32,000 bases of DNA from an uncultured Chloroflexia bacterium (lineage in GTDB: Bacteria; Chloroflexota; Ktedonobacteria; Ktedonobacterales; JADMIN01). Shown in pieces: positions 5,349 through 24,592 of this stretch. A program made the position numbers and the translations under genes. The notes under the pieces were generated by a model. That model saw nothing but the letters and a program-made list of their open reading frames with translations, did not search any database and was not told where the DNA came from. Where the stretch lies: contig CAVRAI010000015.1 of the NCBI GenBank assembly GCA_963718915.1, positions 810,001-842,000 on the forward strand, given 5' to 3'. Each line of letters begins with the position of its first letter. Within the stretch, counting starts at the first letter, position 1.

Positions 5349-5377
5349 TTGCGTTATGATATGAATTAGGATACAAT
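5349..5377 (+). promoter_or_regulatory. candidate sigma70-type promoter for the lipoprotein/membrane-protein pair
   Basis: TTGCGT (5349-5354), 17 nt, TACAAT (5372-5377). It sits in an AT-rich gap ~155 nt upstream of ATG 5532. Confidence 0.3.
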
Positions 5378-5531
5378 CAGGCACACATCAAGCTACTTCA
5401 CAACAACAATCGGTCAGGTGATTGCTGGCGTGCTTGCGTGTGATTTTTAGAGCGGGCTGTTCAACTGCCTCCTGCTTGATGTGCTTACAAGTATAGTCTC
5501 GTTCGGACTGAGGATGAGGAGTTCGAAAACT

Positions 5532-6542
5532 ATGCAAACCCACCGTTCCCGGCGTTTTATCGTGTTGCTGGAACTATCGCTCGCACTGCTGTTGTCATCA
5601 TGCGGAGTCACTAGCGCACAGCCAGCGCTGACCCACGTACATCCAACTTCCACAACGGCCCCGAAGCCAACGGCTACCCCAGAAACAACAGCTCAGCAAC
5701 TCTCATTAAATCAGGCCGCTTCAGCAGATATTGGTGGGTTGCATGTTTCAAGCGATGGCGTGCAGTGTGAGTCGTGGATCGTTTTGAAGGATGAGCATGC
5801 TACCTATGATGTGGGATCCCTGTCACAATTGAAAGATTACCTTGGCAAGGAGGTATTTAGTGACGATGGTGTTCATGTGATTTTGAACCTGCCCGGCCCA
5901 CTGCCAGCAGCGCCATCTTCGGCGGATGTGGTGCTGGGCAGTATGGGCAACGAGTTTGATACGGACAACTCGTATTCGGTACGCATCTATCAGGTTGAAC
6001 CCATGAACCGTTTTGGTTGCGCAACAGCGCTAACACTTACGAACACGAGCCAAGATAGCATCCAGTTGAGCAAGATGGGCGTGACTTATCTGAGCGCGTC
6101 TACCACCAATAACTTTGCATATCACTTGGTAGATTACTGCACGGTTGAAAGCTGTGGACCTTGTCCATGCGGAGCAGGTCTCAACTGCACATTATTCTCA
6201 TCGCTCACTTTGTCGAGCGGTCCTCTGGGTAAAGAGGTAGATGCGCCTATCGTGGTAGATACTTCTGATTCTTGCATCGGTAGCGGCCGTGTACAGCCCA
6301 CCCTTACACCAGGTCAGAGCGTGGTAATTCTGCTAGAACTACGTTCTGTAGATGCTAGTCAGATCTATCATCTGGGTTTAGCGGCCGATATCGTTACTTC
6401 GACGGGTAGCAGACGCCTGACCTTCCCTTCAGTGTTCAACAGCAATGTCGCTTTCGCGAGTAGAAGTCAGTTTTCATGCTTTGGGCTTCACGGCAATACA
6501 TTCACTCGTGAGGCGTCGGCGGTTAAACCGAGCTGTATATAG
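5532..6542 (+). CDS. orphan secreted lipoprotein with a Cys cluster
   Basis: Track ORF is 5481..6542. ATG 5532 is preceded by GAGGAG (5516-5521). The N-terminus MQTHRSRRFIVLLELSLALLLSSCG is a signal peptide with lipobox L-S-S-C. I recognise no family in the mature part. It contains the Cys cluster DYCTVESCGPCPCGAGLNC. Local GC is ~48-50% by hand count. Confidence 0.6.
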   Translation: MQTHRSRRFIVLLELSLALLLSSCGVTSAQPALTHVHPTSTTAPKPTATPETTAQQLSLNQAASADIGGLHVSSDGVQCESWIVLKDEHATYDVGSLSQLKDYLGKEVFSDDGVHVILNLPGPLPAAPSSADVVLGSMGNEFDTDNSYSVRIYQVEPMNRFGCATALTLTNTSQDSIQLSKMGVTYLSASTTNNFAYHLVDYCTVESCGPCPCGAGLNCTLFSSLTLSSGPLGKEVDAPIVVDTSDSCIGSGRVQPTLTPGQSVVILLELRSVDASQIYHLGLAADIVTSTGSRRLTFPSVFNSNVAFASRSQFSCFGLHGNTFTREASAVKPSCI

Positions 6543-6606
6543 CGCCAGAAACGTGTGGTTATAAGGTCACAATTACCGACTCGTTGAGTCGGTACGGAGG
6601 GGCGTA

Positions 6607-7626
6607 ATGGATGCGAATCGGTCAGATACTCGTGGGCAGGTTCTTGGCCATTTGCAGTGGTTAGCTCAGCTATGGATACGCGGCGCACTTGCCCTTGCTA
6701 GTCTGATTTTTGCAAGCATCCTTGCGATTCTATTTGGATTCAACGTATTCAATGGAAACGCCCCAATAGTAGAACTGATACGTCTTCATCCACTTTTTTC
6801 GCTCGTTGCGGGCGGTCTTTTTATAGCCATCACCTTAACGGCGCTGGTAATGGGCCGGAACTCTAATTCCAACGCTGGCGCTCAATCACGTTCCATTATT
6901 GTTGCGTTTTCTCTCGCAACGCTCAGCACAGCGCTCTTTCTTTCGCTGTTAGCAACAGTGCTTTTTCAGCCCGCCTGGTGCCAAGGGTCACCTTTCTGTC
7001 CAATAACCTACCACCCGAACGGGATCCACGATAGTGCGATGGAGATGTACTTCACCGCATATCAAAGCAAGTTCTACGTTATTACGGGTAATCCAAACAG
7101 CTACAACCTGGACGATCTGCCTGATCAACGCATAGGAGCCGTCATTTCTGGAACAACGTCGGCTAAAACTACGTCGTGCAGCATATTTATCGGCGTTCAT
7201 AGCTTGCGAGATAGCGGATATGACATATTGATCCAGCAGGTATATGTAATTGTCCGTGATGTGCCCGGGTTAACCGGCCATCTCAATGTGTGGCAGCCAG
7301 GATCCAATCTCGTATATCATGGCAATCCCTATCAAGTCATGTATCGGGGCGAACTCCAAGGAGGTGTATTGCGTGCCCAGTATCTTACTGCTCCGGCGGG
7401 GTTTGTACAACTCATGCCGCAAGAGACTGACGCGCTTGACCTTCAAATGTCCTCTCTTGTCCCCGCAGACGTTACATTTCAGGTCAAGATTGTCTATCGT
7501 ATGGCAAATGAGGGAGAGCTACATACCCTGATCCTGCCCCAAGTCTTTGAGGTGGTGTTCTCCAATAACGCAAACTGGCATCCCTATAACCTGGTAAACG
7601 GTCGGTTTGCGCCAGCTACGCCATAG
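6607..7626 (+). CDS. orphan integral membrane protein (3 TM helices plus a ~200-aa beta-rich extracytoplasmic domain)
   Basis: 339-aa ORF starting 64 nt after the lipoprotein gene. Helices: LALASLIFASILAILFGF, LFSLVAGGLFIAITLTALVM, IIVAFSLATLSTALFLSLLATVLF. I recognise no family for the remainder. Confidence 0.6.
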   Translation: MDANRSDTRGQVLGHLQWLAQLWIRGALALASLIFASILAILFGFNVFNGNAPIVELIRLHPLFSLVAGGLFIAITLTALVMGRNSNSNAGAQSRSIIVAFSLATLSTALFLSLLATVLFQPAWCQGSPFCPITYHPNGIHDSAMEMYFTAYQSKFYVITGNPNSYNLDDLPDQRIGAVISGTTSAKTTSCSIFIGVHSLRDSGYDILIQQVYVIVRDVPGLTGHLNVWQPGSNLVYHGNPYQVMYRGELQGGVLRAQYLTAPAGFVQLMPQETDALDLQMSSLVPADVTFQVKIVYRMANEGELHTLILPQVFEVVFSNNANWHPYNLVNGRFAPATP

Positions 7627-7673
7627 CATTAGCGCGTGTTCAATGATGCGATTTCCTTTCATACATGGGATTT

Positions 7674-7696
7674 GCCGCAGGGCTTCAGCCTGCGGC
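7674..7696. terminator. GC-rich hairpin between convergent genes (possible bidirectional terminator)
   Basis: GCCGCAGG (7674-7681) pairs with CCTGCGGC (7689-7696) around a 7-nt loop. It lies between gene ends at 7626 (+) and 7742 (-). There is no flanking U-tract, so terminator function is uncertain. Confidence 0.3.
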
Positions 7697-7741
7697 ATGT
7701 TCGAGCCAGGAAGATATTAGCCATTCAGGGCTTTCAGCGCA

Positions 7742-9401
7742 CTACTCACTCAACTGCTCGATGGTTTCGAGCAGCAGACGGGGCAGTGTCTCGAACGAGT
7801 AGGACATCAGCAGGCGCTCGCCTCGCTGGTGCGCGCCTGCGCCATACGGGCCAAAGTTGACTACCGGCAGTCCCAGCGCCGCGATTTCCGCTAATGGCAG
7901 GGAGTAATCGCCTGCCACTGGCGACGCTTCATCCTCGCGCCAGACTGGCATGTTGGCGGTCAGCGCGGTCAGGTCGGCGGTGGTATCAAGTTGCAAGTAG
8001 CTCATATCTGAGATGAATGGGTAAAACTCCTCGACACTCAGTTGCAGGTCAGGGTGCGCGGCGGCAACCTCCGCGACCGCAGTATGAAGCTCGCAGGGCG
8101 CCGCGGCGATATGCGGATAGTATGGTGGCGAGTAGTAGAGCACGATGGCAGGCCCCTCGCGTCCGCTCAGCGTCCAGAGCGCGTGCGTCATGCGCATGCT
8201 GCGCTCGCGACTGTCGATGCCTTCTGGCAGCCGCCTCCAGGCGTCATCTAATGCCGCGACGACCGCCTCTTCGCCCAGTCGCGCGACACATCCCGCCCGT
8301 AGCTCCCGCCAGGTCAGCACATCTCCAGTGCGCGGCGTGGCTCGTGGCTGCCAGTTCGCGTCATCTTGCGCGGCGACCCAGGCGCGTTCGGCGGAGTCGA
8401 TGCGGGCAAGCGTCCGGGTCAGCACCGCCGTTGCTCGCTCTCGCAACGTCTCGATCAGCTGGTCGGGTGTGGTAGAGAAGGTCAGCACGTTGAGATAGAA
8501 GTAGGCGGCGAACGGCAACTGTACGTCGTAGTGCGCCTTGAGGTCGGCGGCATGGAGTGTGACTGGGGGCGGCGTGCTCTGGCCGCGCACATGATCGCAG
8601 AGATTGGGGTTCATGCTGAGGTCGCCGATCAGTTCCGCGGCCAGCAAGTTGGCGTCCGCGCCGCTGAATGGCTCGCCGACGTGCGACTCGCGGCCAACCA
8701 CCAGGAAGCTCGGCAACAGCTTGCCAATTGTGCCGGTATAGATGTAGCGGTGCGTGTCGCCTTTGTAGCGGGCGGCGGTGTAGTCGGTGTTGAGTCGCGC
8801 CGAGGTACTCCAGGCCGTGCTCGTCGCGGAGGCGCTGCAGAAAGCGCACGGCTTGTAGCACGCCCGCCGACTCGTTCTCTTCGTCGGGGGTTGCCAGAAA
8901 GACGACCGAGAGTGGCAGCGGCCGCTGGCGATTGCGCGCGGCGAGATGGCGCATGATGGCGATATTGGCGGCGACGCCCGACTTCATATCGATCGTGCCA
9001 CGGCCAAGCATCCAGTCGTCGGGATACGCGGCAAGGTCTTCGGCCAGGCCTGGGGTGAAGGCTGCCAGTTCCTCGCGCCGCGCCCACAGTTCCTCCGGGT
9101 CGCGCGCCCACGGTTCGAGCGGACCATAGTCGCCCGTCTCGACGGTATCGAAATGGCCCAGCAACACGATGGCGCGCGCGCTGGCGCCTTTGACAAAGGC
9201 ATAGGCGTTCACCCGTTTAAAATGGTCGCCCTCGACCGAATCGAGACCGCTGGCGGTGTAGGCCTCGGCAAAACCGTCCTTAGTAAGCAGCGCCAGAATT
9301 TCCTGTGCGCACGCGATCTCGCCAGCGCCGGGGCTGATACTGTTCACGCGCACCAGCCGCTCGGTGAAGCGTCGCACATCGTTGTACCACTCGCTGGCCA
9401 T
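7742..9401 (-). pseudogene. M20 family metallohydrolase, RocB-like (~552 aa), split by one extra base as assembled
   Basis: ORFs 8361..9401 and 7742..8716 are the N- and C-terminal halves of one protein. M20 blocks: LLGHFDTV, GRGTIDMKSG, LATPDEENESAG. After ...RDEHGLEYLGA the sensible reading (LNTDYTAARYKGDTHRYIYTGTIGKLLPSFLVVGRESHVGEPF) continues one base downstream. The break is at ~8795 (GGC GCG A CTC AAC). Span is 1660 nt = 3n+1. Confidence 0.75.
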
Positions 9402-10758: not shown

Positions 10759-11898
10759 ATGAGCACGGCCAATACGGTGACACATGCGAAGTCTCCGTTT
10801 CTCTCGACGTTTCCAGGGCGATACTACTACGATCCGGCGATTTTCGCGCGCGAGCAAGAGCGTATCTTCTCGCGGATGTGGGTCTACGGCGGGGTAGCGA
10901 ACAGCCTCGCGAAGCCTGGCGACTATCGCACGCTGACCATCGCAAATGAGAGCGTTATCGTCGTCCGCACGAAACAGGGCGACTTGCGCGCGTTCCTCAA
11001 CGTCTGCCGCCACCGTGGCTCGCGGCTCTGCCCCGAGGCGTCCGGCCACCTGAACGGCTCGATTCAGTGCCGCTATCACGCCTGGACCTATGGGCTGGAT
11101 GGCAGGCTGATTGGCGCGCCAAACGTCTTCAATCGCCCCGAGTTCGAGCGCGACCTCTACGGTCTGCATCCCGTCGCGCTGGAGGTCTGGCAGGGGCTGA
11201 TCTGGATCAACCTCTCTGAGAATCCACCGTCGCTCGCCGAGCAGATGGATGACCCCATCGTGCGCGACTTCGGCAGCAACGCCTCGCTCGACCGCTATGG
11301 TATCGCCAACCTCCGGGTCGCGAAGACCATCACCTATGATGTGGCGGCCAACTGGAAGCTCATCATGGAGAACACGCTCGAGTGCTACCACTGCGGCCCG
11401 ATGCACCCCGAACTCTGCGCGCTCCTGCCGGAGTATAAGACGGGCGCCATCGATGGCAACGACGGCACGACGTTTGCCGATGGCGTCGAGGCGTTCACCA
11501 TCTCAGGCAAGGCCAGCCGTCCGCCGCTGCCGGGGCTGCTCCCTGAAGATACACACCGCTATGCCGGTTTCTTCGGCCTGCCCAGCATCTTCATCAACCT
11601 GCTCGGCGACCATGTGGCGATTGACTGGCTGGAGCCGCTGGGGCCGACCCAGACGCGCGTCACGACTGAATGGCTCTTCGATCCGCGGGCGATGGAAAGC
11701 CCAGACTTCGACCCGATGGATGCGGTGGCGATCCTGGATCTCGTGAACCACCAGGACTGGGTGGTCTGTGCGCTGGCGCAGCAGGGGATGACCTCGCGAG
11801 CATACGCGCATGGCGGCAACTATGCGCCGCTCGAACACCATATCCGCGATTTCGTGGACTATATCCTCGCGCGGCTGGGTGATGAGGGCGTGGAATAG
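10759..11898 (+). CDS. Rieske [2Fe-2S] aromatic-ring-hydroxylating oxygenase, alpha subunit
   Basis: Track ORF is 10717..11898; I prefer ATG 10759 (MSTANTV...). Rieske motif CRHRGSRLC-x17-CRYHAWTY. Mononuclear-iron region NWKLIMENTLECYHCGPMHPEL. The substrate cannot be told from the sequence. Confidence 0.85.
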   Translation: MSTANTVTHAKSPFLSTFPGRYYYDPAIFAREQERIFSRMWVYGGVANSLAKPGDYRTLTIANESVIVVRTKQGDLRAFLNVCRHRGSRLCPEASGHLNGSIQCRYHAWTYGLDGRLIGAPNVFNRPEFERDLYGLHPVALEVWQGLIWINLSENPPSLAEQMDDPIVRDFGSNASLDRYGIANLRVAKTITYDVAANWKLIMENTLECYHCGPMHPELCALLPEYKTGAIDGNDGTTFADGVEAFTISGKASRPPLPGLLPEDTHRYAGFFGLPSIFINLLGDHVAIDWLEPLGPTQTRVTTEWLFDPRAMESPDFDPMDAVAILDLVNHQDWVVCALAQQGMTSRAYAHGGNYAPLEHHIRDFVDYILARLGDEGVE

Positions 11899-11913
11899 AC
11901 TGGTGGGTCCACC

Positions 11914-13192
11914 TTACACTCTCCGGCGGCTCTTGCTGAGCGCCTTGCGAGAGAAGGTGAAGTCGAGGCCCTCGCGTTCGGCGAACTGCTGGAAGAGCGC
12001 GTAAAAGCGGGCGCGGTCCTCCGTTGAGATGACCGCCACAGCGTCCGCCGCCTCGATGGAATACGGGATAGCCCTGGCCTGTGATAATCTCGCCGCGCAG
12101 CACATCCATCACGCGGTCGAGCTGGCCATCGTTATCCTCCAGCAGCCACGCCGGAAACTCCACCCGCGCGGGCGGACGGTCACTCGCGGCGCGCAAGTAA
12201 ACGAACGCCACCGCGTCCGCGCCACCGCGATAGCCCATCGTCGTCAGGTCTTCGCGCGCCGAGATGAAGGCGGGCGTACGGTCTCCCCAGGCCAGCGCAT
12301 CGCCCCAGAGCAGCGCGTCGTGGATGCCGCGCGGTGGGGGTAGCTCGTCGCCATCGCCCGAGAGCGCGCGCAGCATCGTGATCGTATCGCGGGCATAACT
12401 GGTGTCGATGTAGCCGAGCAGCGGGATGCGGGTGCGGCGCGAGGCGTCGAGCAGGCGTTGCGCGGCGGCGGCATAGCGCACAGGATATGGCGGCGGCATT
12501 TTGATCGCGAACGAGACGATCAAGCTGCCATCGAAGAGCGCCACGACTGGCCTATCTTCACCCGCCTGCCGCCGTGCCATGTGATGTTCCAGTCGCTCGA
12601 CCAGCGTCTCCACCTCAAGCTCGAAGCGCCGCAGATGAACGATCCGCTCCGAGTAGCCCGCCGCCTCGTTCGTGCGCGCGTTCATCATGTCCGGTTCGCT
12701 CACCAGCAAATCTTCCGGCGGTAGCAACTCGGTGCGCACATCTTTGAGATAGGGAGCGGGCGGCTGGTGTGGATTCTCGTAGATGCCCGCCTGCACCAGC
12801 GCCACCGGCACCGAGGCGTCGCGCCAGGGAAGCAACTGGCTGCCGTCCACGGCGAAGGTGGCCGTGCCGCGCAGACCCTCGGCCCATGCGCGCGACTCCT
12901 CGTGATGGGCGAATGCGCGGCCAAACGGCAGCACGGGCGGCCCGGATCGTCCGAGTTGACGCCAGCGGTCGTACTCGCTCGTGGGGAGCGCGCCTGGCGT
13001 GTGGGATCGTTCGGCATTCGTCAGCGCGGCATCCAGCGCATGCCGTAGCGCCGCCGCGTCGGGATAGCGCGCGCCCAGGGTCGCCAGCGCCTCGCGCCAG
13101 GCATCACGTTGCTGGCCATAGCGTTCGTCGTAGGAGGTGAAGAGCGCCCGTTTGCGCTCCAGTTCGGCGACGAGCTTTTCCGTGTAAAGCAT
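11914..13192 (-). pseudogene. nurA: NurA-type nuclease domain protein (~425 aa), split by one extra base as assembled
   Basis: ORF 11660..13192 is sensible up to ...[14 protein letters not shown]. The reading then continues in ORF 11914..12105 ([37 protein letters not shown]...). The break is at 12064-12067 (TAT CCC G TAT). NurA-like blocks: [53 protein letters not shown] lies 8 nt before ATG 13192. Span is 1279 nt = 3n+1. Confidence 0.7.
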
Positions 13193-13243
13193 CGCGAAGC
13201 CCTCCTACGCGCTCGACCGGTGGCATGTCCGCCTGATTGCTAT

Positions 13244-14748
13244 TCATGGAGAACGAGCCTGAACTTTCACCGGGCAGAGCGGCGCGACCGTGATGGAGTA
13301 ATACGGTGTTTGGGCGTAGTCTGTCCAGCACCACGTAATCGGTCGCGCCAGAGATCGGACGCGATGTGGAAACGTAATATGTTCCCTGCGCCACCAGCTT
13401 AAAGGTATACCCTCCAGTCGTGGCATCCAGCGTGGTCGAGTATTCATCGGAGTAGTAAGAAGCGTGTTGAAGTTCATGTGCTTCGAGAGATGCACCGTCG
13501 GCGAGGGATTGGTCGGCGCGCCGGTGATGAAGCCGGTGACATCCTGTGGCGCATTCAGCGCGTTCTGTGCCGTCTTGGCCTCAGGCGTGTCCTTATAGCT
13601 CGTGACGAGCGTCGTGAAGGTGCTGACCGCGCCAGTGCACTGCTGACCACTGATCTGATCCTGCCCGTAGGCGAGGTAGGCGGTGGCGGCTTTGGCGTGC
13701 CCCTGGCTGGCGTACGCGCTGGAGGCGTATTGCGCTTCCAACGTGCTGAATTCGGTGATTGCTTGCTGGTAACGCTTCTGCTGCAACAACTGAGCGCCAT
13801 AGAGATAGTATGCCTCAGGCGTGACGTTGGCCAGTGTCGCCTGGCAATCGCTGTTACAGGCCGGGCTGGACACGAAGTTGGCGAAGGCGGTGATGGCGTC
13901 GCGATAGGGTACGCTGCTGGCGTCTTTCTTCATCCACGCCGCGTACGCCTGGAACTGGCCCATTTGCGCGCGCTGGAACGGCGTCTCCGCTCTTCTGATA
14001 ATCGTTGAGCACGCTCTGGAAGTGCGTCCAGCGCGCCCTGGTAATCGCCCCGCTGGAGCAATTGCTCGCCCCAGGCGTTCTGCACGCGCGCGATGTCGGG
14101 GGCATCTGGTCCGCTCTGTCCGCTCAGGCCATATTCGCGGATGGCCACGGCCCATTGCCCGCTCTTTTCCATTGCCTGCGCCTGCGCCAGATGGAGCGGC
14201 GCGCTGCCGACGAGGCCGACCACGCCAGAGGCGGCGAGGCCAGCCACCAGCACGAATGTCAGCAACGCGAAGATGAGCGAGCGTCGGCCCACGGCTGCCC
14301 GTAGCAGCGCGATCAGCCCGAAGACCACCGCCAGCGCCAGCGCGACGGTACCGATAGCCACCGCGCCGTCGGCCCAGTCGCCGCCGAGCAGCAGCACGCG
14401 CACGCCAAAGACGAGCGCCAGCAGCGCGATGCTTCCCGCAACGACGAGCAGCGAGACCGAGAGCGGGAAGGGGTTGCCAAGCGGCCCGCGGCTGCGTTCG
14501 GGAATCCGCGAGGAAATGACGGCCAATCGTCCAGATGCGGACGGCTGCGAGGGCATCTTTGGCCGAGATGGCGCTCTTCGTGCGGCCATAGCCTGACTGA
14601 TACCGCGATCCCGAACCGCTGGGGATGGGCGCTGGAAGGGGTAGTAGGGCATCCGTGGGACGGGCGTCAACGGCGGAGGCTTATGTGCCGGGGCGCCAGG
14701 CGCAGACTGCGCTGGCTGATCGCTTCGCTCGTTTGGTCGCTCGTCCAT
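13244..14748 (-). pseudogene. membrane-anchored TPR-like repeat protein with a C-terminal beta-sandwich; needs about four frame changes as assembled
   Basis: Sensible sequence hops across ORFs 13930..14772, 13854..14105, 13244..14155 and 13104..13394. The joined reading is ...AWGEQLLQRGDYQGALDA / FQSVLNDYQKSGDAVPA / AQMGQFQAYAAWMKKDASSVPYRDAITAF...TVHLSKHMNF / YYSDEYSTTLDATTGGYTFKLVAQGTYYVSTSRP.... The N-terminus is Pro-rich, followed by 3-4 TM helices (SVSLLVVAGSIALLALVFGV; AVAIGTVALALAVVFGLIALL; LIFALLTFVLVAGLAASGVVGLVG). ATG 14748 has a GGAGGGG Shine-Dalgarno sequence; ATG 14772 is the alternative start. Confidence 0.55.
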
Positions 14749-14855
14749 GGCCCCTCCATGACCTCTTCGCATCGCTCAAGACCCGCGCACGCGGCCATGA
14801 TGGCCCGGGCAGGCTGACAATCTGTATTGTACCGCAGCGGCAAACAAGCGGGAGC

Positions 14856-17800
14856 CTAAGCGGGGAGTAATGTCTCATGCTCGGCAATGACCGTCTGGCC
14901 ATTGCGCTTCTCCAGATGAATGACGTCGTCGAGTCCCTGCTCGAAGGTATCGTCATGGCTGATGACGAGCAGTTGATCGAAGCCACGCACGCGCCGGATC
15001 TGCTCGGCCAGATTGCCGCGCCGCTCGCCATCCATATTCTGCGTTGGCTCATCGAAGAAGGCGATATCGAGGCGTGAGAGCCGCCGGAGTAGCGCCAGTC
15101 GCACCGCCAGCGCCGCGCTCATCTGTTCGCCACCGCTAAGCTGGGCGAAGGTGCGCTCGCGGCCATCGCGCCGGAGGACGATCTCGTAATCATCCTGCCA
15201 TGCGAGTTCGGCGGAGCGGTCGCCCAGGATCTCGCCGAAGATGCGGTTGGCCTCGCGCGAGATGGCATGTAACTGGGCGCGGAGAATATTTGGCCCAGCC
15301 TCCTTGATGATGTCGCGGAACTGCTTGAGCATCTTGTCCAGGTCGTCGAGCGTCTGGCGTTCTTCGCGGGCTGCGTTCAGGTCGATCAGCAGCGCCTCGA
15401 CGCGGGCAATCTCGTCGGCGAGCCGCGCGCCATCCTGCTGCGTCCGCCGAAGCTCCGCCGTGCACTCGCCATGCGCGCGCCGCACCTCATCGCCGCGCGC
15501 GGTTACTGCTGCCAGCCTGGAGCTATCGAACTTCGCCGCCGCCTGCTCGTAGTCGCGCGTGGCCTTCTGGTGTCTGGTGGTCGCAGCGCGCGCTACCTGT
15601 TCCGCTGCCGCATACGCCTTCTTGCGCGCGCCATGTTGCGCCGCAAGTTGCTCGTTGTGTAGATAGCGCAGATGGCCATCACTCGTGCGCGTCCGTGCGT
15701 CTTCCAGTCGGGCCAGTTCGTCATCCAGCGCGGCGAAAGGCGCCAGCCGCTTATCGCACTCCGCCAGTTGGGCGTCGTGATCACGCAGAGCCGCTTGCGC
15801 GTGTTTGACGCGCGCTCGCCCTGTTCGAGATGTCGGCGGCGGTGGCGCGCAGCGATGCCGCCAGCCCGCGCGGATCGCCGAGGGCGGCGAGTTCCGTCTC
15901 GATGCGTTGCAGATCGGCAGAGGCTGATTCCATCCCCGTCAGTTCGCGCGCCAGCCGCTCCAGCTCGGCGTTGAGCGTATCGCGCCGGTCGCTGGACTCG
16001 CGTAGATGCGATTGGATGTCGGGCAGGCGGTTGCACTGCATCGCGGCGTCATTACTTCGGTCATAGCTGGCGCGCAGACGTTCGAGCGTGCGGGCGTCGT
16101 GGCCGTTGGCGAGCGTCACCTCGATCTGCCGCTGTTCCGTCGTCAATGCCGCAATCTCGTGCTCCAGTCGCTCGCGGTCTTCGGCGGCCTCGCGCTGTTT
16201 CTCCTCGAATTCACCGCGACGGTCCCAGTAGGAGAGGACCGTGCGGGCGTGATCTATCCGAGCCGCCAGCTCGTGCGCATCCTCCTCCAGCGGCGCAAGC
16301 TCCTGCTCGGCCTCGGCGATCATGCGGTCGAAGTAGGTGATGAGGCTGTTCTCGCCGCGCTTCTGGATGTTCAGGCACGGCTCGCGCAGAAAGGGGCAGT
16401 TGCCCACGCCGGACTGCTGCCGCGAAAGGCGATGCTGCTCGATACGCGCCTGCACCTGACGAATCTTGCCGTCGAGAGCTTTCTGCTCCGCCTCCAGGGC
16501 GGGGAAGCTCTCGACCACCGCCTGCTGCGCCACAATCTTGCGCAGGTTCGCCGTCGCCTTCTGCTCAAGTTGCGCCTTTTTCTCGCGTTGCGTCTGCTTT
16601 TCGGGCAATTGCTCGCGTACTGCTTTGAGCCGGGCGCTGCTCGTCTCCCAGGTCGCCTGGGCCGCCTGCGCCGCTTCAAGCTGGCCGCGCCGCTCGCTCA
16701 ACTCCTCGGCCTCGGGGCGAAGCTGCTCTAGCCGGGCGATCTGCTGCTCATCCTGCGTGCAGGCCTGTTGCGCCGCCTGCCACTCGCCCTCGATGCGTCG
16801 CCGTGCCGTTGCCATCTCGTCGCGCCGGGTGACACGCTGCCGGGCCGCCGTGCGCTCCTCTTCGAGCGTTCGTTGCCGTTCGGCTTTTGGCTCGACCTTC
16901 TCCAGCTCATGAGCAGCCTGTTCCGCCGCCGTCAATTGCTCCTGGCTGTGCGCTAGCTCCTTACGCGCGCCTTCCTGCGCCAGGGCCACTTTCGCCCGCT
17001 CCTCGCGCAGTTGCGAGCGCTGTTGTTCGCGGGCGCGCGCCTGGGCAAGCTGCTTCTCGGTCGCGAGAAACGATTCATGGTCGGGACGGCTCTCGGCGCA
17101 GATGCGCGTGGCCTCGGCGGCCTCGGCAAGCTGGCGCTCAGCCTCCATACGCTGGGACTCCGCCGCGCGATGTTCCGCCAGGGCGACATCTACCGCGCTT
17201 TGTAGCGCCGTCACCTGTTGCTTGCGCTCTTCCAGCGCTTTGCGTTCGGCCTCAAGGGTCTCGGTCTCGCGCTGGAGCCGTGCGAGCGTTTCCGTCAGCG
17301 TGCGCTCGCGCGCCCGCCCCTGCTCGAACTGCATGCGCCAGTCATCCAACTGCGCCGTCTCGCGTTCAAGGGCGTCGATATGGCGCTCCTGCTGGTGTTG
17401 CTGATCGGTCAGGTAGCTTTTCGCGGCCAGCAGCTTCTCGGAGGCGGTGCGATAGTCCTCCACCTGGAGCAGCGCGTCGAACTTCTTCTTGCGAACGGCG
17501 GGCGTCTGCAAGAAATCGGCGGTGAAGGTGCCCTGCGGCACGCCAACCGCGTCGTTGAAAAGCGTTTCGAGGTTGAGGTCGCTCTCGATGCGTAGATGCT
17601 GGCGCAGAAACGCGATGACGTCGGTCTTCTGCTCCACGACCCGTTCATCCAGGTCGGGATCGTAGATGTACCAGTCGGACGAGGAGCCGCAACGGCGCAC
17701 GGCGTGATACTCGCGGTCATCTAGCGCCGAGGTGAAGATGACGGTGACGACGCCGACCCTCTCGCCCTCGCGGACGAACTGCGCCTGTTTGTAGGGCAGC

Positions 17801-17949
17801 GCGTCGAAGAGCGCGAAACCGATGGCCTCGACCAGCGTGGACTTGCCCGCGCCGTTGCTGCCACGGATGGCGGTGGCGCCAGCCGCGAGGTCAATCCGCG
17901 TGTCGCGATAGCTCTTGATATTTTCGAGTCTGACGCTGTTGATTCGCAC
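14856..17949 (-). pseudogene. Rad50/SbcC-like SMC-type coiled-coil ATPase (~1030 aa), split by one extra base as assembled
   Basis: ORF 15781..17949 (GTG start) begins MRINSVRLENIKSYRDTRIDL...IRGSNGAGKSTLVEAIGFALF (Walker A). About 700 aa of Q/E/R/A/L-rich heptad-like sequence follows. After ...RATAADISNRASA the reading continues one base downstream (RVKHAQAALRDHDAQLAECDKRL...) into ORF 14856..15485. That ORF carries the signature motif LSGGEQMSAALAVRLAL and Walker B/D-loop LDIAFFDEPTQNMD, then LLVISHD. The break is at ~15808-15819 in a GCGCGCG run. Span is 3094 nt = 3n+1. Confidence 0.8.
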
Positions 17950-18219
17950 GGGTTTGCCTTATCAATACGCTCGCCTGGACGCCGCGCAATGGGGAGAAGT
18001 GTTCAACTAAGAATATTCCTCACCCAGCGCGAAAAGCGGAAATAGACCTTACCCAGCCTTTGATCCCGTAAATCTCATCTATGGAGACGAATCCGCAAGC
18101 GGCGGCGTATCAGGAAAAGTATAGCATGCGGGCAGGCGGAGTCGTCAGCGGGTAGGATGGATAGCACGGTGCCCCATGCTGGAAGTCGCACAGTCTTGAA
18201 ACGGGGTTCAAGATAGCTA

Positions 18220-18579
18220 TCATTTCTCAGGCGGGGTGGACTCCGAGCCAAGTAGCCCGAGTCGCATCATGCGTTGCGCTAATTTGTAGATATCGCCTTT
18301 ATCATCTTCTTTTCTGATACCAGCGGCTACCACGTAGACAATCACCTGAGTCGCTTCAAGATGATAGAGAATCCGGTAGCGCTGGCCGACCGCGCGGACG
18401 CTGCGAAATCCAGCCAACTCACCGATGAGCGGCTTCCCTTTCGCGTCGGGACTGTCCTTCAATTCAGTGATAGTATCGAATAGTTTGCGTCGTATCCGGG
18501 CATCGGTGATGTTACGTAGCATATTCGCGGCCGTCTGGGTAATACGCACTTCCCAGACCGACGTCTGTTCTTCGGGCAT
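18220..18579 (-). CDS. type II toxin, RelE/ParE superfamily
   Basis: 119-aa ORF starting 36 nt downstream of the antitoxin gene. It has the typical RelE/ParE core ...LKDSPDAKGKPLIGELAGFRSVRAVGQRYRILYHLEATQVIVYVVAAGIRKEDDKGDIY. Confidence 0.8.
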   Translation of the reverse strand: MPEEQTSVWEVRITQTAANMLRNITDARIRRKLFDTITELKDSPDAKGKPLIGELAGFRSVRAVGQRYRILYHLEATQVIVYVVAAGIRKEDDKGDIYKLAQRMMRLGLLGSESTPPEK

Positions 18580-18615
18580 AACAACACGCCTTCCCGCCGA
18601 AACGATCAGACGAGG

Positions 18616-18882
18616 CTACTCCAGAGTCGCCTCGAACTCGTCGAGGGAGAGCGTACGTCCCGCGGCAACATCTTCGGCGCTCTGGCGCAGCGCGGCCATC
18701 AGATCCGCGTCGCCCATCACTTCCAATGTCTCGATAATCACCTCATACAGCTCCCACGGAAGTATTGCCAGCACTGGCTCATTCCGGCGCGTCACCGTCA
18801 CCGCCTCGTGCGACCGCGCCAGTTCGTCAGGGAGGCGCGTCAATTGTTCTCGCGCCTCGCTGATGGACATGGTATTGCCCAT
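18616..18882 (-). CDS. type II antitoxin, Phd/YefM family
   Basis: 88-aa ORF: MSISEAREQLTRLPDELARSHEAVTVTRRNEPVLAILPWELYEVIIETLEVMGD. This matches the Phd/YefM N-terminal fold signature, and the C-terminus is acidic. Confidence 0.8.
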   Translation of the reverse strand: MGNTMSISEAREQLTRLPDELARSHEAVTVTRRNEPVLAILPWELYEVIIETLEVMGDADLMAALRQSAEDVAAGRTLSLDEFEATLE

Positions 18883-18992
18883 TGATCGCCTGCTCCCTTC
18901 CGATGCTGAGAATCACTTCCCAGTGCGCAACATGCCACTCCATGCGACATCAGAAGCGCGATGACCACTCTTCACCATCAGATGCACATGTA

Positions 18993-19021
18993 ATTGTACG
19001 TGGATTTGTACAGAAGCGCAA
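18993..19021 (-). promoter_or_regulatory. candidate promoter of the toxin-antitoxin operon with embedded GTACAA repeats
   Basis: The minus strand reads TTGCGC (19021..19016), 17 nt, TACAAT (18998..18993). The plus-strand hexamer TTGTAC occurs twice 12 bp apart (18994-18999 and 19006-19011), overlapping the -10 element and the spacer. The promoter is ~110 nt upstream of ATG 18882. Confidence 0.4.
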
Positions 19022-19090
19022 GGCGCGGCCAGCAGGGGATCTGAACAATCAGGATTAGCCGCCTAGCTCTCAGCCTGCGGTCTGTACCCC

Positions 19091-19581
19091 TTACGAATTC
19101 GTCGCCTTCCACCAGTCTATCGTCACCTCGACGTGGCCGAGGTGCAGCCCCAGGTGCTCGACGGTGTGCGTCAGGCAGCGGCGGTTCATCCGGTCGCCAG
19201 CGGGATGGCGGCTGATGGCGGCCAGTTGCTCCGAGGTCATGCCGGTGAGCAGCGTCTCGGCGTCTGCCAGGAAGCTGACGAAGCGCGGGCGAAGTTCGGC
19301 CCAGGTGGGCAGCGCGGCGAACTCGGCGTCGCGGTCGCGCTCGATGGGGCCATCGCCGACGCAGCTGATGTACCCACCACTCGGCAGACGAGATAGCGTG
19401 CGAGCAGATGGCCGCCAGCGTGTTCGTCTGCGCGGTGGGCGGCTGCCAGGCGAACGCCTCTTCACTGATCGCGTCGAGCGCCTCAATATACCAGGTAATC
19501 AGCCGCCGCAGATGGTAGCGATATAGTTCCGACTCGTTCGTCGGCTCTTCGCCGGGCTTTCGGCGGCGTTGGCATCGGCAT
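19091..19581 (-). pseudogene. DinB-family (four-helix-bundle, His-rich) protein (~162 aa), two extra bases as assembled
   Basis: ATG 19581 (GGAAGGGG upstream) gives MPMPTPP. The sensible reading then moves +1 (KPGEEPTNESELYRYHLRRLITWYIEALDAISEEAFAWQPPTAQTNTLAAICSHAISSAEWW; break ~19551-19566). It moves +1 again at the GGG run 19371-19380 into ORF 19091..19486 (YISCVGDGPIERDRDAEFAALPTW...LTHTVEHLGLHLGHVEVTIDWW). Span is 491 nt = 3n+2. Confidence 0.6.
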
Positions 19582-19583
19582 GG

Positions 19584-20625
19584 CTATTGCCCCTTCCTTG
19601 CACTGTCGGTCAGCGTATTGCGGAGCATCCCCAGCCGTTCGATCTCCATCTCCACCACATCGCCCGCCAGCAGCCAGCGGTGGCGCTCAGTGCCCAGTTC
19701 GAGGATGCAGCCGGTTCCACAGGTGCCGGAGCCAATCACATCGCCGGGCCGCAGCCTCACATGCTCTGAGGCGCGCTCGATCATCTGCGGGAAGGTGTAA
19801 TACATGTTCTGCGTGTTGTCGTGGGTCAGGTTGTCGCCGTTGATCCAGCCGCGTATCTCCAGGTTGTAGCGCTCGTCCTTACCGGAGCCAGTGCGTCGGT
19901 CGTCCAACTCGTCGGGCGTGACCAAATAGGGGCCAAGCGAGGTGGCGAAATCTTTGCCCTTGGCTGGCCCCATATTGAGCACCTGCTCTTTGCGCCAGAG
20001 GTCGCGCGCGCTCCAGTCGTTCATCACCATGTAGCCAGCGATGTAGCCCGGCGCGTCGTCGGCGGCGATGTCGCGTCCCTCGCGTCCGATGACCGCCGCC
20101 ATCTCCAGCTCGAAGTCTACCTCCTGGCTGCGCTGCGGATAGCGCACCGGCTCCTCCGTGCCATACAACTCCGAGGTGTTAGAGAAATAGAAGACCGGGA
20201 ACTCATACCACGCCGGGATCATCTCCGCCCCGCGCCGGCGCCCGCGATGCCTTGACGTGCTGCTCGAAGACGTAGAAGTCGCGCAGGGTCGCAGGATTCG
20301 GCACGGGCGTCCGTAGCTCGACGTCGCGCAGATCGTGGGTAATCACCGGCTCGCCCGGCTCCAGCGCCACATCTTCCGGTCGTCCTTTATCCGCCGCCGC
20401 CAGCGCCGCGCGCACCGCCGCCATGCCGTCTGGCCCAAGCTGCAGCAGCGCCAGCGTCGTCGTCGGCAACCCCGGCACGCCGTTCACATCCAGCAGCACG
20501 ATGCCATTGCGCGCCGCCCACGTCCCCAGCGCCGCCAGATCAAACACCTGCTCGCCGACAAGAACGCCCGCGCGCCCCTCCGCCAGATGCGCCGCGCCCG
20601 CCTGCACATATGTCACCAGCTTCAT
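19584..20625 (-). pseudogene. fumarylacetoacetate hydrolase (FAH) family protein (~346 aa), split by one extra base as assembled
   Basis: ORF 20203..20625 (MKLVTYV...TLRDFYVFEQHVKA) and ORF 19584..20222 (MIPAWYEFPVFYFSN...MVMNDWSARD...GKDFATSLGPYLVTPDEL...RPGDVIGSGTCGTGC) are two halves of one gene. The break lies within 20223-20250 (GC-rich, GGGG run). Its stop is 2 nt from the DinB-family ATG. Confidence 0.75.
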
Positions 20626-20972
20626 CGCTTCATCACTCCTATGTGGCTATTGGTGGGGATAATTCTCCGGGAAATGCTGTCCGTAGCGCGTCCAACTTCG
20701 TTGTCGACACACCTGTCGGAGTATAGCACGGTCGGCGCCTTGTGACTTTTCTAGCAGAGTGGCAATCCCTGTGGTGATATACTTCTATGAAACTCAGAGG
20801 CTTGTTTTATGCTCTGCATTAGTGACCTTCTATGGTGCAATTTATTGCGGATAGATGCCTGATGTCATGTAGGCTCCTGGCAGAGTTCCGCAGTCCGCGT
20901 AGGCGGACTTCGTGGCCGCGGGCCATTTAGGCGCGGCTCTAGTCGTCAGCCCGAAATAGATGAGGAAGTGCT

Positions 20973-23900
20973 ATGACCCAGGTGAGTCGGTATCTTGAGG
21001 CGGTTCGGCAGCGGGTGATTGTCTTCGATGGCGCGATGGGCACCATGATCCAGAATCTCGGTCTGGAAGCGGCTGACTATGGCGGCGAAAGCCTGGATGG
21101 CTGCCCCGAAATTCTCGTATTGTCCCGCCCTGACGCCATCCGCGACATCCACCGCGCCTATCTGGCCGCAGGCGCCGATGTGCTCGAGACCGACACCTTC
21201 ACCGGCACGCGCCTTAAGTTGGACGACTATGCTCTAGGCGCGCGCACGCACGAGATCAACACTGCCGCCGCCCGGCTGGCCCGCGCCGCCGCAGATGAGT
21301 TCAGCACCGCCGAACGCCCGCGCTTCGTCGCTGGCTCGATGGGGCCAACTGGTATGCTCCCGTCTTCGGATGATCCCGCCCTCTCGAATATCACCTATCA
21401 ACAGCTTGCCGAGATGTACCGCGAACAGGCGGCGGCGCTGATCGAGGGCGGCGTTGATCTGCTGCTGATCGAAACCAGCCAGGACATTCTGGAGGTGCGC
21501 GCTGCCATTACCGGCATACGCCGCGCCTGGGCCGAGACGGGCCGCCGCGTGCCGATTCAGGCGCAGGTCACGCTCGACACGTCCGGGCGGATGCTGCTGG
21601 GCACCGATATCGGCGCTTCCTCCACGATTCTGAGTCACCTGGGCGTGGATGTTGTGGGCCTCAACTGCTCAACCGGCCCGGAGCATATGCGCGAGCCGGT
21701 GCGCTACCTCACCGAGAATATCCCGCTGCCGATCTCGACGATCCCCAACGCGGGGTTGCCGCTCAACGTCAATGGACGCGCCATCTATCCGATGGAGCCG
21801 GAGCCGTTCGCCGCGGCCCTCGCCGAGTTCGTCGGCACGCTGGGGGTCAACATCATCGGCGGCTGCTGTGGCACGACGCCCGAACACATCGCGCGCATCG
21901 TCGCCCATCTGGACGATCTCGATTCCGCCCATCGCAGCCATCCCGTGCGGCGGCTGAACGACTTCTCCGATGAGACGCGCCACCGCACCCAGCAGCTGGT
22001 GGCCTCGGCCATGCGCGCCACCTCGCTGCAACAGGATCCGGCGCCGCTGCTAGTGGGTGAGCGTGTCAACTCGCAGGGCAGCCGCAAGGTGAAGCAGGCG
22101 CTGCTGGCCGACGACTACGACACGCTGCTCCAGGTGGCGCGGGCACAGGTGGATGGCGGCGCGCATGTGTTGGATGTCTGTGTCGCGCTGACCGAGCGCG
22201 CCGACGAGCCGGAGCAGATGAGCCGGTCGGTGAAGAAGCTGGAGATGGGTGTTGAGGCGCCGTTGGTGATCGATTCCACCGAGGCGGGTGTGATTCAGGC
22301 CGCGCTGGAGACCTATCCGGGCCGGGCCATTATCAATTCGATCAACCTGGAGAATGGCCGGGTGCGCGTGGATGCGGTGCTGCCGCTGGCGCGCGAGCAT
22401 GGGTCGGCGGTGGTCGCGCTGACGATTGACGAGGAGGGCATGGCGAAGACAGCGGAGCGCAAGCTGGCCATCGCCCAGCGTATCTTCGAGATCGCCACCA
22501 GCGAGTATGGACTGCCCGCCGAGGCGCTGCTCTTCGACGCGCTGACCTTCCCAGTCACCACCGGGCAGGAGGAGCTACGCGATAGCGCCGTGCAGACGCT
22601 CGAAGGCATCCGCCGCATCAAGGCGGAGCTGCCGGGCGCGCTGACCATCCTTGGCGTCAGCAACGTCTCTTTCGGTGTTACACCACATTCTCGCGCCGCG
22701 CTCAATAGCGTCTTCCTCTATCACGCCGTGCAGGCTGGGCTGGACGCCGCCATCGTCAATCCGGCGCATATCACGCCCTACGCGGAAATCCCGGAGGCCG
22801 AGCGCGCGCTGTGTGACGACCTGCTCTTCAATCGGAGCGAGGATGCCCTGCCGAACTTCATCGCTTACTACGAGCAGCACGGTGGCGAGCGACCGCAAGA
22901 GGAGAAGGCTGACCCCACCGAGGGGATGAGTGTGGATGAGCGCATCCACTATCAGATTCTCCATCGGCACAAGGAGGGCATCGAGGCGCTGGTAGATACC
23001 GCCATCACCACGACGCGCCGGGGTCTGAGGCGAATCCCGACGCGCCCGACTGGAAGACGACGCCGCAACTCTCGCAGGCGGCGGTGGAGGCGCTCAATGG
23101 CGTGCTGCTGCCCGCGATGAAGGATGTCGGCGACCGTTTCGGCGCGGGCGAGCTGATTCTGCCGTTCGTGCTGCAATCCGCTGAGGTGATGAAGAAGGCC
23201 GTCGCCCGGCTCGAACGCTATCTGGAGCGCACCGAGGGCTACACCAAGGGGCGCGTGGTGCTTGCTACCGTCTTTGGCGACGTGCATGATATCGGCAAGA
23301 ACCTGGTCAATACGATTCTGAGCAACAATGGCTATACCGTCTATGACCTGGGCAAGCAGGTGCCGCTCAACACTATCATCGACAAGGCGATTGAGGTGAA
23401 GGCTGATGTGATTGGCCTCTCGGCCCTGCTGGTTAGCACGTCGAAGCAGATGCCCGCATGCGTCGCGGAGCTGGATCGGCGGAAGCTGTCGTTCCCGGTG
23501 ATGGTTGGCGGCGCGGCGATCAATCGCGCCTATGGCCAGCGCATCCTCTACGTCGGCGAGCCGGGCCAGGAGCAGCCGTATGGACCGGGCGTCTTCTACG
23601 CGCGCGATGCCTTCGAGGGGCTTGAAATTGTCGAGGCGCTGACCGATGGCGAGAAGCACGAGACGTTCGTCGAGCGGGTGAAGCGCGAGGCGCAGTCGGC
23701 GCGTGAGCTCCAGGCTGAGCGCGAGGCGGCGCGTGCGTCTGCTCCAACAGTTGTGCAGGAGCATGCCCCGGTGACGCCTGCCCCGGTAATCGTCGCGCCG
23801 TTCTGGGGGCCGCGTGTGTTGGACCGCGTCGCCGTCGAAGACGTGGCGAACTATCTCGATAAAAATGCTCTCTATCGTGGGCGCTGGGGTGGCGTGGCGC

Positions 23901-24592
23901 ACGGCGAGGAGTATAAACGGCTGGTGCGCGAGGAGTTCGAGCCGCGATTGGAGCGACTGCTGCGCGAGGCCCGTCAGCGCCAATATCTCCGTCCACGCGC
24001 TGTCTACGGCTACTATCCGGCGCGCGCCGAGGGCGATACGCTGCTGGTGCTCGATCCATCCGACCCGACAAGCGTGCTGGAGCGGTTCGCGTTCCCCCGG
24101 CAGCCCGACGGCCAGCGCCTCTGCCTGGCGGACTACTTCGCCACCGAGAGCGGCGAGCCAACCGCCGTCGCCTTCCAGGTGGTGACGATGGGCAACCGCG
24201 CTTCACAGGAGACCGAGCGCATGCAGGCGGCAGGCGACTACTCCGAGGCGTACTTCCTGCATGGGCTGAGCGTCCAGATGGCCGAAGCGATGGCCGACTA
24301 TGTCAATCGACGTATCTGTGACGAGTTGAAGTTGACCGGCGAGGCGGGACGCCGCTATAGCTGGGGCTACGCCGCGATTCCAGAGTTGGCGGACCACGAG
24401 CGCGTCTTCCGGATGATGGGTGTGCCTGAGGCGATAGAGGTCACGCTCACCGAATCGTATCAGCTTGTGCCCGAACAATCGACCGCCGCGATTATTGTCG
24501 TGCCGCATCCCGGCTCGGTCTACTTTGCCGTGCGCGAGGCGGCGGCGAGTCAACGGCGGGGTAGGGTCAGTTCAGATTCACGTTCCAGATAG
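20973..24592 (+). pseudogene. metH: cobalamin-dependent methionine synthase (~1200 aa), frame broken once (-1 type) as assembled
   Basis: ORF 20973..23120 holds the Hcy-binding domain (VIVFDGAMGTMIQ...GGCCGTTPEHI) and the pterin-binding domain (LLVGERVNSQGSRKVKQAL). ORF 23084..24592 holds the B12 cap and B12-binding domain (GELILPFVLQSAEVMK; FGDVHDIGKNLV, i.e. DxHxxG) and the AdoMet-activation domain (RRYSWGYAAIPEL). The frame switches around 22995-23020 (...EGIEALVDTAIT / ...DAPGSEANPDAPDWKTTPQLSQAAVEALNG). The 3' end is duplicated at 27212-27287. Confidence 0.9.
24483..24564 (+). repeat. direct repeat copy 1: the resident 3' end of metH
   Basis: By hand alignment to 27212-27287, 74 of ~81 columns are identical: ccgccgcgattattgt[cgt]gccgca[t]cccggctcggtctactt[t]gccgtgcgcgaggcggcggcgag[t]caacg[g]cggggta. 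Confidence 0.85.

Follow-up and report, generated by a model that had tools for sequence, protein, structure and literature searches.

A rad50–nurA gene pair in Ktedonobacteria that resembles part of the archaeal Mre11–Rad50–NurA–HerA gene set

A stretch of 32,000 nucleotides from an uncultured member of the Ktedonobacterales (contig CAVRAI010000015.1, positions 810,001 to 842,000; this whole stretch is called the window below) carries, between positions 11914 and 17949, a gene for a Rad50-like ATPase, a gene for a membrane protein with tetratricopeptide repeats (here TM-TPR) and a gene for a NurA-type nuclease. ATPases of the Rad50/SbcC type have the Mre11/SbcD phosphoesterase as their partner, usually encoded by an adjacent gene. 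To our knowledge, NurA has been studied so far only as a partner of HerA. The locus raises the question of which of the three genes belong together, which partners the two enzymes use and whether the system is of a known kind. A preliminary description had treated the three genes as a minimal module in which the ATPase uses NurA as its nuclease, possibly tethered to the membrane through the TPR protein.

The linked Rad50-like ATPase and NurA genes

The reading-frame layout, obtained by six-frame translation of the window, placed all three genes on the minus strand in the coding order ATPase, TM-TPR, NurA, and recovered the same coordinates and the same gaps of 83 and 51 nt as had been described before (Table 1). 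The first product proved to be an ATPase of the Rad50/SbcC type, as proposed: every motif named earlier was present, and the protein matched the three Pfam families listed in Table 1. Among 59 intact orthologues the Walker A, Q-loop, LSGGE, Walker B, D-loop and H-loop motifs are all at least 95% conserved. Between the two halves of the ATPase head lie about 650 residues of low conservation, in which Glu, Arg, Ala and Gln are abundant, and the NCBIfam Rad50 model PRK02224 aligned residues 1–1016 of the protein to model positions 1–869 of 888. The top NCBIfam match was to archaeal Rad50 (2.4e-48, compared with 5e-7 for bacterial SbcC, TIGR00618, for which the score was 28 bits against a cutoff of 478.5). 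Matches in the PDB were to the Rad50 heads 5f3w, 3aux and 3qku, at about 1e-21, and at E ≤ 1e-3 they included no E. coli SbcC chain. Exactly mid-protein, at residues 518–525, we observed a Cys pair of the form C-P-x-L-x3-C, which is part of a motif, G-x-C-P-x-L-x3-C-x-N-I, conserved in at least 95% of the 59 orthologues. A C-P-V-L-x4-C variant (GICPVLNGVKC), resembling the apex motif of the window, occurs in the Rad50 of Candidatus Methanoperedens.

The NurA identity of the third product was borne out by a profile hidden Markov model (HMM) search, in which PF09376 matched over profile positions 3–254 of 254 with 122.4 bits (cutoff 21; E = 2.9e-35). A search of PDB sequences with the family profile did not find a solved NurA chain; it returned only JetB, at E = 0.21, which we regard as noise. 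We also obtained an AlphaFold2 (AF2) model of a homologue that is 93% identical to the NurA of the window (P0001), using an alignment of database proteins. The model has a predicted local distance difference test (pLDDT) score of 83.2 and a predicted TM-score (pTM) of 0.85, and its top Foldseek matches in the PDB were Sulfolobus solfataricus NurA (2ygk, 2e-8), Deinococcus radiodurans NurA (7f6d_G) and Pyrococcus furiosus NurA (3tal), with EndoV, Argonaute and RNase H ranking after the NurA structures. Since the TM-scores to the matched structures are only 0.34–0.53, the predicted fold marks NurA of this type as a divergent member of the NurA fold family. Five acidic residues are invariant in the family (D116, E193, D221, D263 and D383). 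Four of them, D116 in strand 1, E193 in the long helix, D221 in strand 4 and D383 in the C-terminal EAADA sequence, occur in the order expected of an RNase H fold. In P. furiosus NurA the catalytic set is Asp51, Glu105, Asp126 and His411 (PMC3300031). Mapped by order, the acidic residues would match this site, and the last position would be Asp, not His.

When one genome per GTDB species was scanned, 241 NurA relatives were obtained. The best 80 of the 241 all belong to the class Ktedonobacteria and include the cultured Thermogemmatispora carboxidivorans and Dictyobacter; homologues were also assigned to metagenome-assembled genomes (MAGs) of Ktedonobacterales. An exhaustive profile search, in which the family reached well past the class, gave 1399 representatives at E ≤ 1e-3, with roughly 190 representative clusters at E ≤ 1e-30. 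Synteny was followed by tblastn and clustering of open reading frames (ORFs) in 72 informative, non-redundant loci, and in 68 of these (94%) nurA is directly preceded by the ATPase gene in the same orientation. The two genes have diverged in parallel, NurA identity falling from 92% to 46% and ATPase identity from 87% to about 37% across the linked loci. Nothing separates them in 41 loci, from Ktedonobacteraceae, Thermogemmatispora and an intermediate clade, where the median junction is an 11-nt overlap; this 11-nt overlap is found in about 20 loci. Placement of the TM-TPR gene between the two is restricted to one clade (about 33 loci), in which NurA shows 57% or more identity to that of the window; the gene is absent in Ktedonobacteraceae and Thermogemmatispora. 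The flanking genes vary and are of housekeeping type (CtaA/B, CtaG, MogA, WD40, PstB, FtsH and Ldh).

These results establish the ATPase and NurA as a real, tightly linked and conserved module, which appears to have been inherited vertically across the class Ktedonobacteria. Because TM-TPR lies between them in one clade only, the conserved unit is the pair and not the trio; the linkage of ATPase and NurA that had been proposed was upheld, and the place of TM-TPR as a core part was not. Our literature search found no publication on a bacterial rad50–nurA operon, and nothing relevant on NurA or HerA in Ktedonobacteria or Chloroflexi, or on NurA in defence systems.

Mre11, HerA and the likely role of the pair

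The absence of Mre11/SbcD and HerA from the window, as first described, held in a six-frame motif scan, in Pfam searches and in tblastn. No GNHD/E metallophosphatase motif was found in the six frames of the window, no other ORF of the window matched Metallophos or DUF87 (HerA) in Pfam, and a tblastn search of the window with Ktedonobacteria Mre11 gave no match. For Mre11 this absence is true of the window and not of the lineage, which has a conserved, stand-alone homologue of the archaeal type. In three loci (L040, L041 and L043) a motif scan revealed an Mre11/SbcD-like gene of 447 aa, convergent with nurA and 1.4–3.5 kb downstream of it, and a 443-aa metallophosphoesterase family with 1321 matches at E ≤ 1e-10 extends across Ktedonobacteria (Dictyobacter, Ktedonosporobacter and Ktedonobacterales MAGs). 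The top NCBIfam match of this homologue is archaeal Mre11, at 8e-29, compared with 1e-9 for bacterial SbcD. It stands alone, with no SbcC/Rad50 gene beside it, in all six contexts examined (L086–L089, L171 and L172), and in no locus is it directly adjacent to the ATPase gene. Both nonetheless occur on one contig: contig_36185 (2.8 Mb) has Mre11 at 1.16–1.18 Mb and the ATPase–NurA pair at 1.88–1.90 Mb, about 715 kb apart, and the MAG DASYGC01 carries Mre11 (L172) and NurA (L030).

The three genes are found together in Candidatus Methanoperedens, in overlapping mre11 (434 aa)–rad50 (1178 aa)–nurA (385 aa) operons. We observed the mre11–rad50–nurA cluster in L091, L095, L097, L173 and L174, in the last four of which it ends at nurA, and a longer form, mre11–rad50–nurA–171 aa–herA, in L170 and L175. 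Identity between the Ktedonobacteria and Methanoperedens proteins is 31% for Mre11, 31–34% for the Rad50 heads and 28% for NurA. Because Ktedonobacteria conserve an Mre11 homologue, which is 31% identical, over nearly its full length, to the product of the operonic mre11 of Methanoperedens, it is unlikely that NurA serves Rad50 as its nuclease in place of Mre11, as the preliminary description had suggested.

The best-supported explanation is that rad50–nurA of Ktedonobacteria is the bacterial counterpart of the rad50–nurA part of the archaeal mre11–rad50–nurA(–herA) cluster that processes double-strand break (DSB) ends. On balance we lean towards reading positions 11914–17949 as the rad50–nurA operon of an archaeal-type Mre11/Rad50/NurA end-processing system, from which mre11 has been relocated and which, in one clade, has gained an unrelated envelope TPR gene by insertion. 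In such a system the ATPase would be a Rad50-type dimer whose ABC heads clamp DNA when ATP-bound, and whose long antiparallel coiled coils would join at the apex Cys-pair motif. The unlinked archaeal-type Mre11/SbcD homologue would be its nuclease partner for end recognition and for opening or trimming of the end. NurA, presumably co-translated with Rad50, may then act as a ring-shaped dimer of the RNase H/PIWI fold that resects the opened end in the 5′-to-3′ direction. DNA could be fed into NurA by a HerA whose gene lies elsewhere in the genome; if the genome has no HerA, the motor could be Rad50 or some other helicase.

Several points weigh against this interpretation. The ATPase reaches at best 164.8 bits, where the cutoff is 700 (NF003034), and falls far below every NCBIfam Rad50 equivalog cutoff; the protein also does not have the canonical CxxC zinc hook. 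Four informative loci (L002, L033, L037 and L083) have NurA without an adjacent ATPase. The partnership of Mre11 with Rad50 in Ktedonobacteria rests on about 30% identity to an archaeal operon. Another SbcC/Rad50 protein may be the true partner of Mre11; one locus (L017) encodes a second SMC-like ATPase. The TM-TPR gene is co-oriented with the pair, with short terminator-free gaps, and has been kept in about 33 loci, so a functional link to the pair is possible. Finally, domain identities, synteny, gene overlap, the unlinked Mre11 and the three- and five-gene archaeal operons were all observed, whereas every physical interaction and activity invoked here is one that we infer from the protein families.

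The second ATPase of L017, a Ktedonobacterales MAG, is a 1047-aa SMC/Rad50-like protein (17748–20891, minus strand) whose coiled coil contains, midway, a hydrophobic, transmembrane (TM) hairpin; it is encoded about 6.5 kb downstream of nurA. Its top NCBIfam matches are Rad50, arcadin-4 and sbcC, all far under cutoff.

The role of HerA is central to the main alternative. That NurA is unlinked from HerA, as had been noted for the window, was found again in the wider neighbourhood check. The search for HerA covered 1.45 Mb of Ktedonobacteria sequence surrounding the NurA and Mre11 loci and combined tblastn, with archaeal and bacterial queries, with a Walker A scan; in this DNA tblastn gave no match. 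None of 85 NurA loci has a HerA/FtsK-type gene, genuine FtsK excepted, within 10 kb, and there is no HerA near Mre11 in six loci. In other lineages HerA follows just downstream of NurA, past one small gene: the distant NurA loci L105, L114, L119, L135, L151 and L163 have the order NurA, small gene, HerA, and so do L170 and L175. Because those lineages keep HerA in this position, its absence beside the NurA of Ktedonobacteria would be a derived state. The distant loci come from a metagenome scan with a 9-sequence distant NurA subgroup, which also recovered mre11–rad50–nurA loci of Methanoperedens and returned mostly very distant NurA-like genes at 21–30% identity, not sister groups of the Ktedonobacteria family, so that the distribution of NurA between Ktedonobacteria and Methanoperedens is unsampled by it. 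The small conserved gene between nurA and herA recurs in many loci and encodes about 171 aa in Methanoperedens, with no Pfam match on record (L170:11143–11661; L175:9154–9669), and about 199 aa in bacteria (L132:9674–10270).

If Ktedonobacteria have no HerA at all, NurA might dock directly on the Rad50-like ATPase, for which its N-terminal helical extension (residues 1–60) would be a candidate contact, with Mre11 acting in trans or absent, and the SMC-type ATPase would take the place of the hexameric translocase in driving or gating resection by NurA. This would be the minimal module of the preliminary description in amended form: a three-protein Mre11–Rad50–NurA resection machine, with an SMC-like ATPase that controls NurA and an unlinked Mre11. 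We put it forward as a tentative possibility. It agrees with the lack of HerA in the neighbourhoods searched and with the presence of HerA next to NurA in other lineages; moreover, the 11-nt overlap of rad50 and nurA points to translational coupling, and such coupling would be in keeping with a physical complex. Some Methanoperedens operons likewise stop at nurA, and the genomes that carry them may have the same HerA-less arrangement. However, absence from a neighbourhood is not absence from a genome, and the position of Mre11, away from the pair, demonstrates that genes of this set have been scattered in the lineage. Among the closest archaeal relatives herA is found in the same cluster, and the activity of NurA is modulated by HerA in published work (PMC3300031; PMC9960219).

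It is also conceivable that the adjacency is a historical relic, in which Rad50 works only with the unlinked Mre11, and NurA with some other partner or alone, after the break-up of an acquired operon of archaeal type. Mre11 has indeed parted from Rad50 without apparent loss, there are the four loci with NurA and no ATPase, and the unrelated TM-TPR gene has been inserted between the pair and even duplicated there. Against this, adjacency, order and strand are held in 94% of the informative loci, down to 46% NurA identity; the stop and start codons overlap in about 20 loci, and the same rad50–nurA overlap is seen in Methanoperedens. Neutral retention over such divergence is unlikely, and we consider a relic improbable.

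Still less probable is the anti-phage or anti-plasmid role that had been suggested, in which a Rad50/SMC-like sensor ATPase would act with NurA as effector, by analogy with Lamassu, PARIS, Gabija and MADS, possibly together with a membrane component. The pairing of an ATPase with a nuclease is a common defence architecture, a toxin–antitoxin pair lies just upstream in the window, and the ATPase matches the PADLOC models mad3 (2.8e-31), LmuB (1.6e-23), AriA and GajA. These matches are, however, confined to generic ABC/SMC head regions, and PADLOC gives no match for NurA or for the TPR protein. The pair is single-copy and syntenic throughout the class, with parallel divergence of both genes, and its archaeal homologues sit in a classic DSB-repair operon with mre11. 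Because the neighbours are housekeeping genes, and not defence islands or mobile elements, we regard a defence role as very unlikely.

The membrane TPR gene and the state of the locus

The features of the locus are collected in Table 1.

Table 1. Positions of the genes, motifs and intergenic regions of the rad50–nurA locus in the window
Feature	Position	Strand	Remarks
PhdYeFM antitoxin	18616–18882	minus	directly upstream region of ATPase
ParE toxin	18220–18579	minus	adjoins 270-bp region 5′ of ATPase
Non-coding region 5′ of ATPase	17950–18219	minus	270 bp; likely promoter region
Rad50-like SMC/ABC ATPase gene	14856–17949	minus	stitched product 1031 aa; Pfam SMC_N, AAA_23, SbcC_Walker_B
Walker A GSNGAGKST	17836–17862	minus	sole genuine Walker A in six frames of window
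Apex motif of the putative coiled coil (middle of the protein) GNCPFLREPCLNI	16366–16404	minus	Cys pair C-P-x-L-x3-C where Rad50 has CxxC zinc hook
C-terminal ATPase head motifs	14949–15140	minus	LSGGEQ, Walker B/D-loop, H-loop
ATPase signature LSGGEQ	15123–15140	minus	
ATPase Walker B and D-loop IAFFDEPTQNMD	15030–15065	minus	
ATPase H-loop LVISHDD	14949–14969	minus	
Gap ATPase/TM-TPR	14773–14855	minus	83 nt; no terminator-like site on minus strand (terminator scan)
TM-TPR gene	13244–14772	minus	stitched product about 508 aa; Pro/Arg-rich N-terminus, 3 TM helices, TPR-like repeats, C-terminal domain
TM-TPR TM helices	14401–14463, 14302–14364, 14206–14277	minus	DNA coordinates
Gap TM-TPR/NurA	13193–13243	minus	51 nt; no terminator-like site (terminator scan)
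NurA nuclease gene	11914–13192	minus	stitched product 425 aa; PF09376 E = 2.9e-35
NurA acidic block FAVDGSQ	12836–12856	minus	
NurA acidic block RRFELE	12614–12631	minus	
NurA acidic block ALFDGSLIVSF	12509–12541	minus	
NurA acidic block GYIDTSYARD	12386–12415	minus	
NurA acidic block YSIEAADAV	12037–12063	minus	
NurA basic C-terminal tail	11917–11946	minus	

The middle protein agrees in part with its first description as a membrane TPR protein with three to four TM helices. TPR matches were present, weak and above cutoff (TPR_14, 30.2 bits against 23.5; TPR_2, 27.1 against 27), and three helices were found. YbgF- and BamD-like matches in NCBIfam were weak and under cutoff. The topology predicted by the positive-inside rule has the N-terminus inside and the C-terminus outside, which would place the TPR and C-terminal domains on the extracytoplasmic side, and an extracytoplasmic TPR domain argues against a membrane tether for DNA repair. 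The tethering role that had been proposed was rejected on this topology, with its three TM helices, and on the confinement of the gene to one clade and its absence from half of the class. TM-TPR is probably a clade-specific insert into the operon that is functionally unrelated to the repair pair.

Tandem copies of TM-TPR, two or three in number, lie between the ATPase gene and nurA in several MAGs (L001, L010, L037, L038 and L047). In L037 a 1299-aa protein made up entirely of TPRs is encoded about 2 kb upstream of two TM-TPR copies, and there is no ATPase gene in the 10 kb upstream of nurA. A second, unrelated membrane TPR protein of about 410 aa, with an N-terminal TPR region and C-terminal TM helices, is encoded downstream of nurA, and in the same orientation, at 16 loci (L040, at 11421–12653, L002, L017–L019, L024–L027, L029, L032, L034, L039, L041 and L043); this gene is not present in the window. 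Two unrelated TPR membrane genes thus recur at the nurA locus.

Upstream of the ATPase gene, the non-coding gap followed by a toxin–antitoxin pair was seen as previously reported, the orthologues in the closest relative, L001, being PhdYeFM and ParE. The pair spans 18220–18882 and is also present in L001. A promoter scan of 17950–18219 identified no minus-strand promoter; the sole sigma-70-like match was on the plus strand, at 18196–18223.

In the window, all three genes are interrupted by changes of frame: one in the ATPase gene (near 15812–15817), at least four in TM-TPR (near 14029, 13978, about 13460 and about 13262) and one in nurA (at 12064). Each break corresponds to an unpaired single-base insertion in the window relative to intact orthologues of 85–89% DNA identity (L006, L007 and L009), and the stitched proteins are collinear end to end with intact homologues. 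Unrelated genes of the window are split into overlapping ORFs in the same way (peptidase M20, 7742–9401; FAA hydrolase, 19584–20625; MetH, 20973–24592), which suggests frequent single-base indel errors throughout the window. Because intact orthologues do not have the insertions and unrelated genes of the window are split alike, we read the breaks as assembly noise; to judge from these alignments they are most likely sequencing or assembly errors and not gene decay. The contrary view, that the locus is decaying in this organism and all three genes are pseudogenes, could appeal to at least six frame-breaking single-base insertions within 6 kb, but is scarcely credible given that the housekeeping genes MetH, FAA hydrolase and peptidase M20 are broken alike, that gene calls are similarly fragmented in related long-read MAG contigs (L001 and L004), and that the coding sequence, insertions aside, has no in-frame stops and encodes proteins 85–93% identical to intact orthologues.

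Elsewhere in the window, positions 5000–8000 have a GC content of 0.50–0.53, compared with about 0.62–0.65 in the remainder, and contain two plus-strand ORFs (5481–6542 and 6607–7626) with no Pfam match; this segment may be foreign DNA. Among the 80 metagenomic distant NurA-like loci (L090–L169), 33 have a NurA-like gene that abuts a SufU/IscU-like gene (for example L120:2581–2967 and L122:1208–2428). These NurA-like genes are mostly matches to the core domain, have SufS, DnaJ or an HAD hydrolase often nearby and have no ATPase partner; a NurA-fold protein is here associated with genes of Fe–S cluster assembly. On another metagenomic contig a distant NurA-like gene has as its neighbour a GyrB-like gene that appears to be interrupted by an intein (L093:280–3480, minus strand).

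Comparison with known systems

The defence systems Lamassu (LmuB), MADS (mad3), PARIS (AriA) and Gabija (GajA) share with the locus an ABC/SMC-type ATPase beside a nuclease, and it is the ATPase heads that match the PADLOC HMMs. Unlike these systems, the locus in the window lacks all of their cognate partner proteins, NurA is not among the effectors known to PADLOC, and the Ktedonobacteria pair occurs class-wide in housekeeping contexts rather than patchily or in defence islands.

In bacteria, sbcD and sbcC are normally neighbours. As in E. coli SbcC/SbcD, an ATPase of the Rad50/SbcC ABC superfamily with a putative long coiled coil occurs here in a genome that also encodes an Mre11/SbcD metallophosphoesterase. 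In contrast to bacterial SbcCD, however, the SbcD/Mre11 homologue of Ktedonobacteria is encoded alone and the ATPase gene is paired with nurA, and the ATPase of the window matches the sbcC model TIGR00618 only at the level given above.

Deinococcus offers a bacterial NurA-fold nuclease for comparison (D. radiodurans NurA–HerA, PDB 7f6d), with 7f6d_G the second-best fold match and with a presumed role in 5′ end resection. There nurA and herA form one operon and their products a NurA–HerA complex (PMC9960219), whereas the partner gene of nurA in the Ktedonobacteria pair encodes a Rad50-type ABC ATPase and not a HerA/FtsK translocase. The similarity of the window NurA to the solved NurA structures is, moreover, undetectable by HMM.

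A whole bacterial class keeps nurA next to, and apparently translationally coupled to, the gene for a Rad50-type ATPase, with no herA nearby, and provides a natural test of whether Rad50 and Mre11 can drive or gate NurA. An archaeal-type Mre11/Rad50/NurA set is thereby documented for bacteria, one that also illustrates how such an operon can be dismantled, mre11 having moved off and a foreign membrane gene having been inserted. Cultured Thermogemmatispora and Dictyobacter make the question open to experiment. Should HerA be encoded elsewhere in Ktedonobacteria genomes, the finding would be an operon rearrangement of modest interest.

The closest known arrangement is the archaeal herA–mre11–rad50–nurA cluster for DSB repair, which is described for Sulfolobus and Pyrococcus (Constantinesco 2004, cited in PMC9960219). 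The same Rad50 and NurA families are involved, rad50 is immediately 5′ of nurA and overlaps it, and for each of the Rad50, Mre11 and NurA proteins of Ktedonobacteria the best-scoring model or structure is archaeal; an apex Cys motif other than CxxC is shared with the Rad50 of Methanoperedens. The Ktedonobacteria differ in that the host is bacterial, that mre11 is unlinked, so that only rad50 and nurA are clustered instead of all four genes, that herA and the small gene preceding it are not at the locus, that a membrane TPR gene is inserted between rad50 and nurA in one clade, and that the proteins all fall far below NCBIfam equivalog cutoffs. The view that no described system has this composition was overstated, the composition being a subset of the classic archaeal cluster. 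Overall, the rad50–nurA pair appears to be part of the known archaeal Mre11–Rad50–NurA–HerA set in rearranged form, and not a new kind of system: what is new is the arrangement, and what is known is the repair system.

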